Translations under genes and position numbers: made by a program
Notes under the pieces: model-generated
Told to the model about the DNA's origin: nothing
Database searches by the model: none
What the model saw: the letters and a program-made list of their open reading frames with translations, nothing else
Assembly: GCF_046105845.1 (NCBI RefSeq)
Contig: NZ_CP151004.1
DNA length: 64,000 bases
Reading direction: 5' to 3' (one strand)
Origin: Escherichia coli
GTDB taxonomy: Bacteria > Pseudomonadota > Gammaproteobacteria > Enterobacterales > Enterobacteriaceae
Part shown: positions 48,361-48,600 of the stretch, one piece after another
How the letters are laid out: the number at the start of each line of letters is the position of its first letter
Position numbering within the stretch: the first letter of the stretch is position 1

Positions 48361-48600
48361 AGAAGTTCCTTACACATAAAAAAAACGGCCAACGTCGGAA
48401 GACGTCAGCCGCTGCTTTTTATGCATAGACCTCGCCTTCCGGCAAGGTCTCACTTACAACAAAAAAGGAATACGTCTGCGTATTCCTTTCGGGTTGCCCG
48501 GTGACCGGATGTGGTTTTGCACACATCGTAATGACGATCGACCGGCAATGAAGTTACTCCCCTTTGCAGGTAACAAAGTATGACAGACCATTCAGTCAGT
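48361..48600 (-). promoter_or_regulatory. alx 5' leader: yybP-ykoY-type (Mn2+/pH-responsive) riboswitch element
   Basis: Minus-strand leader contains the conserved CAAAGGGGAGTAAC segment and an attenuator hairpin CGTCTTCCGACG...GGCCGTTTTTTTT just upstream of the alx ATG; 5' boundary approximate. Confidence 0.55.

Follow-up and report, generated by a model that had tools for sequence, protein, structure and literature searches.

The ygjR-alx intergenic region of an Escherichia coli genome carries the known alx leader, a three-way-junction Mn2+ riboswitch missed by the Rfam yybP-ykoY model

Introduction

The leader of the Escherichia coli gene alx has long been a subject of study, as SraF, PRE, or the alx riboswitch, and is known to respond to Mn2+ and pH (PMC12153347, PMC3874183, PMC10197570, PMC12934788). 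In the literature, it is classed as a structurally distinct member of the yybP-ykoY riboswitches, and alx-type aptamers have been reported only in Enterobacterales (PMC12153347). E. coli has a second Mn2+ riboswitch, that of mntP, which is a canonical yybP-ykoY RNA (Rfam family RF00080) with a four-way junction, whereas the alx aptamer is a three-way junction in which a 5-nt linker, L2, replaces helix P2. The published description of alx further includes the L3 consensus UCAUUAC, the helices P5, P6, and P5/P6, and transcription termination at +110 and +190 (PMC12153347).

Direct Mn2+ binding is known from the K-12 sequence, both from single-molecule fluorescence resonance energy transfer (FRET) and from a crystal structure (PDB 9JGM, as cited in PMC12934788). 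Binding favors a translationally active conformation (PMC12153347). In the FRET experiments, Mn2+ stabilizes the docked three-way junction, and alkaline pH sensitizes docking (PMC12934788). The L2 linker (C19 to G23) is described in the same 2026 preprint as a capping loop and the proposed pH-sensitive site, with C19 as the proposed partner in a pH-dependent C19·A114+ wobble (PMC12934788). Alkalinization also raises cytoplasmic Mn2+, which Alx exports (PMC10197570). Folding of the leader is shaped by RNA polymerase pauses at hairpins C and D, and mutations that shift pausing at the pause sites PC and PD change expression 2- to 6-fold (PMC3874183). In a reporter, the 68-fold induction seen between pH 6.8 and 8.4 is abolished by A37U, in which the adenosine that coordinates Mn is mutated. 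Thus, the element senses Mn2+.

Here, we compare an alx leader from a 64-kb stretch of DNA with these systems. Its identity to K-12, its helices, their covariation, and their exclusive pairings come from our own analysis; Mn2+ binding, the pH effect, pausing, and the translational output are taken from the literature.

Results

The alx locus and its promoter

All coordinates refer to the window, the whole 64-kb stretch that was analyzed. In its list of open reading frames (ORFs), a ygjR-like ORF ends at 48644 and a 321–amino acid (aa) ORF starts at 48360, both on the minus strand. The latter (47395 to 48360) encodes Alx, a TerC-family Mn2+ exporter. It matches TIGR03718 ('R_switched_Alx') with 401 bits against a cut-off of 246 and, more weakly, the R_switched_YkoY and YjbE subfamilies, and the K-12 record annotates alx as 'Mn(2+) exporter Alx'. 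The leader that regulates this gene lies directly 5′ of it and in the same orientation, in the gap between it and ygjR. A 401-nt intergenic query matched 5419 of 5426 complete E. coli genomes (95 to 99.8% identity), always between ygjR and alx, and we therefore assign the window to E. coli. Judged by its sequence, the minus strand of 48361 to 48600 is the ygjR-alx intergenic region with the E. coli alx leader (PRE, SraF, alx riboswitch). An earlier note on this DNA had marked the same interval as a riboswitch leader; it covers the whole leader, from the inferred transcription start site (TSS) at 48568 to the ATG, and most of the promoter. A 45-aa ORF within it (48454 to 48591, minus strand) was rejected as a gene because the TSS is downstream of its start codon and because aptamer indels break its frame between species.

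A putative sigma-70 promoter can be read at 48575 to 48602 (minus strand), with a −35 hexamer TTGACT (48602 to 48597), a 16-nt spacer, and a −10 hexamer TACTTT (48580 to 48575). An automated promoter scan made no call at this site, because the −10 hexamer matches at just three of six positions. We place the TSS at 48568 since the published numbering then maps exactly: A11 (48558), A37 (48532), the mutagenized A132 (48437), C135 (48434), and A137 (48432), and the pause site G138 (48431) each fall on the stated base. The leader would thus comprise about 208 nt up to the AUG at 48360, and the published +110 and +190 terminators coincide with its two U-tracts.

Aligned over these ~208 transcribed nucleotides, the leader differs from that of K-12 MG1655 at three places. 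Two are A-to-C substitutions in the apical loop of P3.1 (UGCAAAAC in the window versus UGAAAAAA in K-12), and the third is one extra U in the final U-tract (U8 after P6 versus U7 in K-12). None of the three falls within a region to which a function has been ascribed. The promoter region, L1, L2, L3, P1.1, P1.2, P3.2, P4, P5, P6, and the ribosome-binding site (RBS) are identical. We considered and rejected the idea that the two substitutions hit the proposed pH-sensing L2, since L2 (CAUUG, 48550 to 48546) is unchanged and the substitutions sit in the P3.1 loop. Locus, K-12 identity, and literature therefore bear out the earlier note, which had called this the known pH- and Mn2+-responsive element and had described it as intact. 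Escherichia albertii carries the same P3.1 loop variant as the window.

On the other side of alx, the alx-sstT spacer (46780 to 47394) is 615 nt long in the window versus 398 nt in K-12, and its full arrangement is common to just 1659 of the 5426 genomes. About 285 nt of it (47035 to 47318) belong to a dispersed repeat found at two to six places per E. coli genome with ~87 to 89% identity, and inverted repeats are present at 47139 to 47154 and 47264 to 47279. Just 3′ of alx and on the opposite strand, Salmonella enterica subsp. diarizonae has the small RNA (sRNA) STnc310 (locus L015:2490–2550, minus strand; 81.4 bits, E = 1.2 × 10−13), of which Citrobacter (L007) has a weak homolog (25.7 bits).

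The L1 motif and chance

The conserved core that the earlier note had recognized in the minus-strand leader, GGGGAGTA, lies at 48555 to 48562 and is the sole copy in the window. Taken alone, this 8-mer does not exceed chance expectation (0.73 copies per window), and 51 of 100 shuffles had at least one. The second half of loop L1, GAGACC, follows 103 nt downstream. The composite of both halves, GGGGAGTA-N(90–120)-GAGACC, occurs once (48446 to 48562, minus strand) and in 0 of 100 shuffles. Could GGGGAGUA simply be a chance occurrence beside an ordinary terminator, with no functional RNA at all? The expected number of 8-mers would allow it, and so would the lack of an Rfam match. Yet the composite is missing from the shuffles and is kept in 79 of 80 orthologous loci, covariation is extensive (see below), and the full leader folds far more stably than its shuffles (z = −7.6 for a 231-nt version). 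The comparative data thus refute a chance motif, to which we assign next to no probability.

Rfam searches of the leader

The earlier note had proposed a covariance-model search with the Rfam yybP-ykoY family as the check on its reading. This search gave no RF00080 match on the 48361 to 48600 region, a result that, taken literally, contradicts the note. RF00080 (Rfam 15, 'Manganese') also had no match at its gathering score (45 bits) in the whole 64-kb window, nor any in 401 nt around the leader with the threshold relaxed to E ≤ 10. We nevertheless do not accept the absent match as a refutation. The same model found no match on the K-12 alx locus, missed all 17 of the enterobacterial alx leaders taken from other genera, and scored our positive control, the validated and crystallographically characterized K-12 mntP riboswitch (L002:1962–2058), at 41.6 bits, below the cut-off of 45. 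As printed, its consensus structure consists of an unpaired 5′ L1 followed by P2, P3/L3, and P4, and includes neither P1.1/P1.2 pairs nor a 3′ L1 strand. Because these are missing, the model relies on P2, L3, and P4, which is precisely where alx differs. Given the sub-threshold control, the missed alx leaders of K-12 and of other genera, and the content of the model, we regard the negative search as a false negative. The sole Rfam family at gathering score in the window was rnpB, the bacterial RNase P class A RNA (16599 to 16975, plus strand; 318.6 bits, E = 1.7 × 10−103, full length).

The NCBI pipeline PGAP takes its RNA names from Rfam. Among the E. coli records listed, none had a PGAP riboswitch feature under the leader match, and the K-12 reference record has no riboswitch feature at alx or mntP. 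Since RF00080 misses alx-type leaders and puts mntP under the cut-off, automated annotation leaves alx-type RNAs unlabelled.

A conserved three-way-junction aptamer

The alx-type Mn2+ aptamer occupies 127 nt (48441 to 48567, minus strand) and is organized as a three-way junction of P1.1/L1/P1.2, P3.2/L3/P3.1, and P4. Its first segment (48555 to 48567) is made up of the 5′ strand of P1.1 (GCAAAGG, 48567 to 48561) and the 5′ side of L1 (GGAGUA, 48560 to 48555), which includes A11. The L2 linker (CAUUG, C19 to G23, 48546 to 48550) stands in place of helix P2 and leads into the P3 arm (48498 to 48545). There, P3.2 (48545 to 48535 with 48507 to 48498) and the P3.1 hairpin (48527 to 48508) flank L3 (UCAUUAC, 48534 to 48528), which contains the Mn-contacting adenosine A37 (48532). 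The P4 arm (48456 to 48497) has a base helix (GCAAC/GUUGU) and an internal terminator-like hairpin (48490 to 48463) followed by U6 (48466 to 48461), which has been published as terminator TB or the +110 termination site (PMC12153347, PMC3874183). The aptamer closes at 48442 to 48455 with the 3′ strand of P1.2 (AAGU, 48455 to 48452), the 3′ side of L1 (GAGA), and the 3′ 'switch' strand of P1.1 (CCUUGC, 48447 to 48442), which is common to P1.1 and P5. Compared with shuffles, the aptamer fold has a z-score of −3.5.

For comparison, we assembled 80 loci of Alx relatives, one genome per species, picked by protein similarity only. All 80 belong to Enterobacterales, from Escherichia to Serratia, Hafnia, Pantoea, and Erwinia. 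Both L1 strands, GCAAAGGGGAGUAAC (5′) and GAGACCUUGCC (3′), are found upstream of the start codon in 79 of them. The exception is Rouxiella aceris (L081; Alx 80% identical), in which no aptamer was recognizable within 700 nt upstream of position 1501 and just a P6-like terminator hairpin, AAAAGCGGCTAATGTCTTTTGACGTTAGCCGTTTTTTT, is retained. This looks like a loss of the riboswitch.

We aligned 66 distinct aptamers of 96 to 147 nt. The 5′ side of L1 is invariant in 65 of the 66 and the 3′ side, UGAGACC, in all; the conserved L1 loop of the yybP-ykoY family (5′ GGGGAGUA, 3′ GAGAC) is therefore present between P1.1 and P1.2. L3 reads UCAUUAC in 55 of 66 aptamers, its U-C-A..A-C frame and A37 are invariant, and so is CGG on its 3′ side. 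The linker between P1.2 and P3.2 measures 4 to 6 nt in every aptamer, too short for a hairpin, which leaves no P2 helix and hence a three-way junction. L2 itself varies: at C19 (48550, alignment column 18), 53 of 66 aptamers have C and 9, from Pantoea, Pluralibacter, and relatives, have G, which suggests that pH tuning may be lineage-specific.

Pairing in the three-way-junction helices (P1.1, P1.2, P3.2, P3.1, and the base of P4) is well maintained, with standard pairs in 99.1% of cells across the 66 aptamers. When the 3′ partners were slid by one to three columns, 23 to 43% remained paired; note that the structure was partly taken from the minimum free energy (MFE) fold of this very sequence, which favors it over the slid controls, and that the shuffle control does not amount to a probability. 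Both sides had changed in 12 pairs (110 cells), of which P3.2 contributed five, P3.1 four, and the P4 base three. Covariation is silent on P1.1 and P1.2, neither for nor against, because both are invariant, although able to pair. An alternative helix between UUGCC (48548 to 48544) and GGCAA was rejected as incompatible with covariation at the P4 base (for example, CGUC/GACG in Kosakonia), where the register 24–110 to 28–106 covaries. An alx-type covariance model, R1, has a single match in the window, at 48441 to 48567 (minus strand; 122 bits); as the window sequence was part of the model's training set, this match is built in.

Above its base, P4 is hypervariable in length and sequence, and is a hot spot for insertions. 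In E. albertii (L003:1118–1421) and E. whittamii (L006:1118–1421), a 177-nt insertion inside P4 extends the aptamer to 304 nt. This insertion consists of a second, degenerate P4 hairpin copy and REP-like palindromes (GCCTGATGCGCT..CGCTTATCAGGCCTACA), and both aptamer halves and the expression platform are still intact. ERIC-like or REP-like insertions likewise stretch the aptamer to ~230 to 385 nt at six further loci (L018, L019, L041, L078, L080, and L025) from Siccibacter, 'Enterobacter pulveris', Rouxiella silvae, Serratia grimesii, and Superficieibacter. Two of the stretched aptamers gave weak matches to the Rfam family V_AS5.

A U-run of at least five follows the P4 hairpin in just 10 of the 66 aptamers. 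This matters for the view that the region mainly encodes a trans-acting sRNA, SraF, ended at +110 or +190 and with its targets elsewhere. Two intrinsic terminators in the leader would indeed give short, stable transcripts, and the name sraF is still in use for the locus. But the +110 terminator is confined to those few aptamers, no target is known, and what is conserved are the features of a cis-acting switch, in which alternative helices are linked to the RBS and terminator of alx. Any sRNA role would add to the riboswitch function and not replace it. We therefore hold it very improbable that SraF is the main product of the region, and continue to treat the leader as a riboswitch.

Mutually exclusive helices in the expression platform

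Downstream of the aptamer, the 3′ strand of P1.1 can be captured by P5 (hairpin C; 48427 to 48450, minus strand), an OFF-state hairpin of the form AGACCUUGCC-GGAA-GGCGAGGUCU that is present in the full-leader MFE fold. Across 71 species, 92% of P5 cells are paired; its 5′ strand being invariant, all changes are one-sided. P6 (hairpin D; 48378 to 48413, minus strand) is the terminator-like hairpin that the earlier note had correctly placed just before the alx start. It has a 13-bp stem (48413 to 48384) followed by U8 (48385 to 48378), ends 17 nt before the alx ATG, and has been published as terminator TD or the +190 termination site (PMC12153347, PMC3874183). P6 is paired in 95% of cells, and five of its pairs have changed on both sides. 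Jointly, the two OFF helices are 93.9% paired in the 71 species.

The ON-state helix (48397 to 48440, minus strand) pairs GGAAGGCG (48440 to 48433) with CGUCUUCC (48404 to 48397). It corresponds to 'stem C/D' of Nechooshtan et al. (PMC3874183) and to what Stephen et al. call the 'P5/P6' helix (PMC12153347). Pairing is retained in 98.4% of cells, versus 47 to 70% with slid 3′ partners, and four of the eight pairs have changed on both sides (25 cells). In Citrobacter and Salmonella, for example, the P5 loop has changed from GGAA to GAAU together with a change of the P6 loop from UUCC to AUUC. The ON helix excludes both P5 and P6, and covariation in the 71 species supports both conformers. The platform is thus a relay of four strands, P1.1, P5, stem C/D, and P6, each excluding its neighbor, in which the ON helix probably acts as an anti-terminator.

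These helices are also the ones on which the original PRE model was built. In that model, the leader is a ligand-free pH sensor: alkaline pH lengthens RNA polymerase pauses and so redirects folding, and the resemblance to a Mn2+ aptamer is vestigial. Our verified ON and OFF helices are those of the PRE model, and the effects of pausing mutations at PC and PD (PMC3874183) fit it as well. Near invariance of L1 and L3 in 66 aptamers is, however, unexpected for a vestigial site. Moreover, alkalinization itself raises cytoplasmic Mn2+ (PMC10197570), and Mn2+ stabilizes the docked aptamer (PMC12934788). Together with the A37U result, which largely refutes sensing of pH only, this makes a ligand-free sensor highly unlikely, and we retain Mn2+ as the ligand.

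The translation start comprises a Shine-Dalgarno sequence (UAAGGAA, 48372 to 48366), the spacer CUUCU, and the alx AUG (48360 to 48358), together at 48358 to 48372 on the minus strand. The full-leader MFE fold (−98.3 kcal/mol) matches the published OFF state, with P5, P6, and pairing between L1 and the RBS: AAG (48371 to 48369) pairs with CUU (48553 to 48551), and ACUUCU (48366 to 48361) pairs with GGGAGU (48561 to 48556). Pairing of the RBS with disrupted P1.1/L1 has been published for E. coli (PMC12153347). Across Enterobacterales, this duplex is not conserved (mean z = −0.06 over 68 RBS regions, with 21% of species below z = −1), and we therefore make no claim that the mechanism is general. 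Note that the test is crude and took in only this duplex; other partners, such as an extended P6 stem reaching the Shine-Dalgarno sequence, may also sequester the RBS.

Judged by secondary-structure energy only, the OFF fold is more stable than the aptamer-closed fold by ~14 kcal/mol. With P1.1 and P1.2 forced closed in ViennaRNA, the ON helix did not form spontaneously and P6 persisted; this two-dimensional thermodynamic model has no tertiary or Mn2+ terms and is not informative on the opening of P6. The cost of ~14 kcal/mol and the persistence of P6 agree with a switch dependent on Mn2+, tertiary docking, and co-transcriptional kinetics, all of which lie outside the predictor.

Discussion

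We conclude, with a confidence close to certainty, that this is the known alx leader riboswitch, a Mn2+-sensing and alkaline pH-tuned control of the Mn2+ exporter Alx. The element itself was already known, and biologically there is nothing new here. What the alignment adds is phylogenetic support for the three-way-junction aptamer and for the OFF and ON helices, which in the E. coli literature appear to rest on probing and mutagenesis.

The helices and the published work combine into a model of how the switch would operate. Mn2+ would be bound between L1 (GGAGUA/GAGA) and L3 (UCAUUAC, with A37 at 48532) of the 127-nt aptamer, and would keep the P1.1 switch helix closed. GGAAGGCG would then be free to pair with CGUCUUCC; this ON pairing would block the P6 terminator and leave the RBS open, allowing Alx to be produced. 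In the absence of Mn2+, the 3′ strand of P1.1 would instead enter hairpin P5, and P6 would form and terminate transcription near +190. In RNAs that nevertheless reach full length, the freed L1 strand would pair with the Shine-Dalgarno sequence and the region before the AUG, turning translation off. Alkaline pH would act by raising cytoplasmic Mn2+ and by sensitizing the aptamer to it. Co-transcriptional folding would be biased by pausing of RNA polymerase.

Conserved control by alx-type leaders might consist mainly of transcription attenuation (P6 versus stem C/D), with RBS occlusion by L1 an addition of the Escherichia lineage. This is a possibility worth stating, though we would not bet on it. 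The conservation and covariation of P6, its U-tract, and the ON helix in 71 species point in this direction, as do termination at +190 in vitro (PMC12153347, PMC3874183) and an L1:RBS duplex that in most species is no better than in shuffled controls. On the other side, all work in E. coli describes alx as a translational riboswitch, on the evidence of translational fusions and probing (PMC12153347, PMC3874183). Pairing of L1 with the RBS does occur in the window sequence, and the crude duplex test leaves room for other sequestering partners. That terminator/anti-terminator control was the ancestral output is likewise a tentative suggestion, one that we consider more doubtful than probable.

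Three features of the E. coli leader are not general across Enterobacterales: pairing of L1 with the RBS, the terminator at +110, and a C at position 19 of L2. It is conceivable, although the odds appear to be against it, that the alx-type aptamer is a self-contained class confined to this order, with a conserved P5, stem C/D, and P6 relay as its output, and that L1:RBS pairing, the P4 terminator, and possibly pH tuning through C19 are specific to Escherichia and a few other genera.

The searches also have a practical consequence. Both Mn2+ riboswitches of E. coli escape annotation by RF00080. A negative RF00080 search in Enterobacterales must therefore not be taken as the absence of a Mn2+ riboswitch.

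How, then, does this leader relate to the described Mn2+ aptamers? It agrees with the E. coli K-12 alx riboswitch in locus, orientation, and named elements, and the published numbering maps onto the window exactly. Its relation to the yybP-ykoY family is more distant. The leader has the family's L1 loop, an L3 with a Mn-contacting adenosine in a covarying P3 arm, and the TerC/Mn2+-exporter context; it stays below the RF00080 gathering cut-off and has no four-way junction. Accordingly, the yybP-ykoY-type label of the earlier note stands for the shared L1 frame, the P3 arm with L3, and the context, and falls for the architecture: this is an alx-type three-way-junction Mn2+ riboswitch and not a canonical RF00080 member. 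Neither covariance model detects the other class. With filters off, R1 scored the mntP locus at just 4.9 bits (E ~ 2), aligning, in the correct place, only the P1.1/L1/P1.2 frame, to which statistical likeness to canonical members is therefore confined; this score gives family membership no statistical backing.

Within that frame, UUGGGGAGUAGCC...GGCGAGACCAUAUG in mntP corresponds to AAGGGGAGUAACU...AGUGAGACCUUGC in alx, and the first P1.1/L1 segment of alx (48555 to 48567) aligns with mntP UUGGGGAGUAGCC in register. Both RNAs have a P3 arm with an asymmetric, A-containing L3 and CGG or UGG on its 3′ side, both use P1.1 as a switch helix, and both control a Mn2+ exporter and are turned on by Mn2+. 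They differ in L3 (UCAUUAC in alx versus ACAUACU in mntP and the yybP-ykoY consensus), and alx stands apart from mntP in its long P4, which bears an internal terminator, in its platform (P5, P6, and stem C/D), and in its strong dependence on pH. The comparison extends to the aptamers of Lactococcus lactis yoaB and Xanthomonas oryzae, known from crystal structures that PMC12153347 cites, which, like alx, have two coaxial legs docked via an A-minor contact of L1 and bind Mn2+ by a conserved L3 adenosine. Unlike alx, these two are four-way junctions from other phyla, coupled to transcription terminators. The L3 of alx is functional when grafted into the L. lactis scaffold (chimera PDB 6CC1; PMC12153347).
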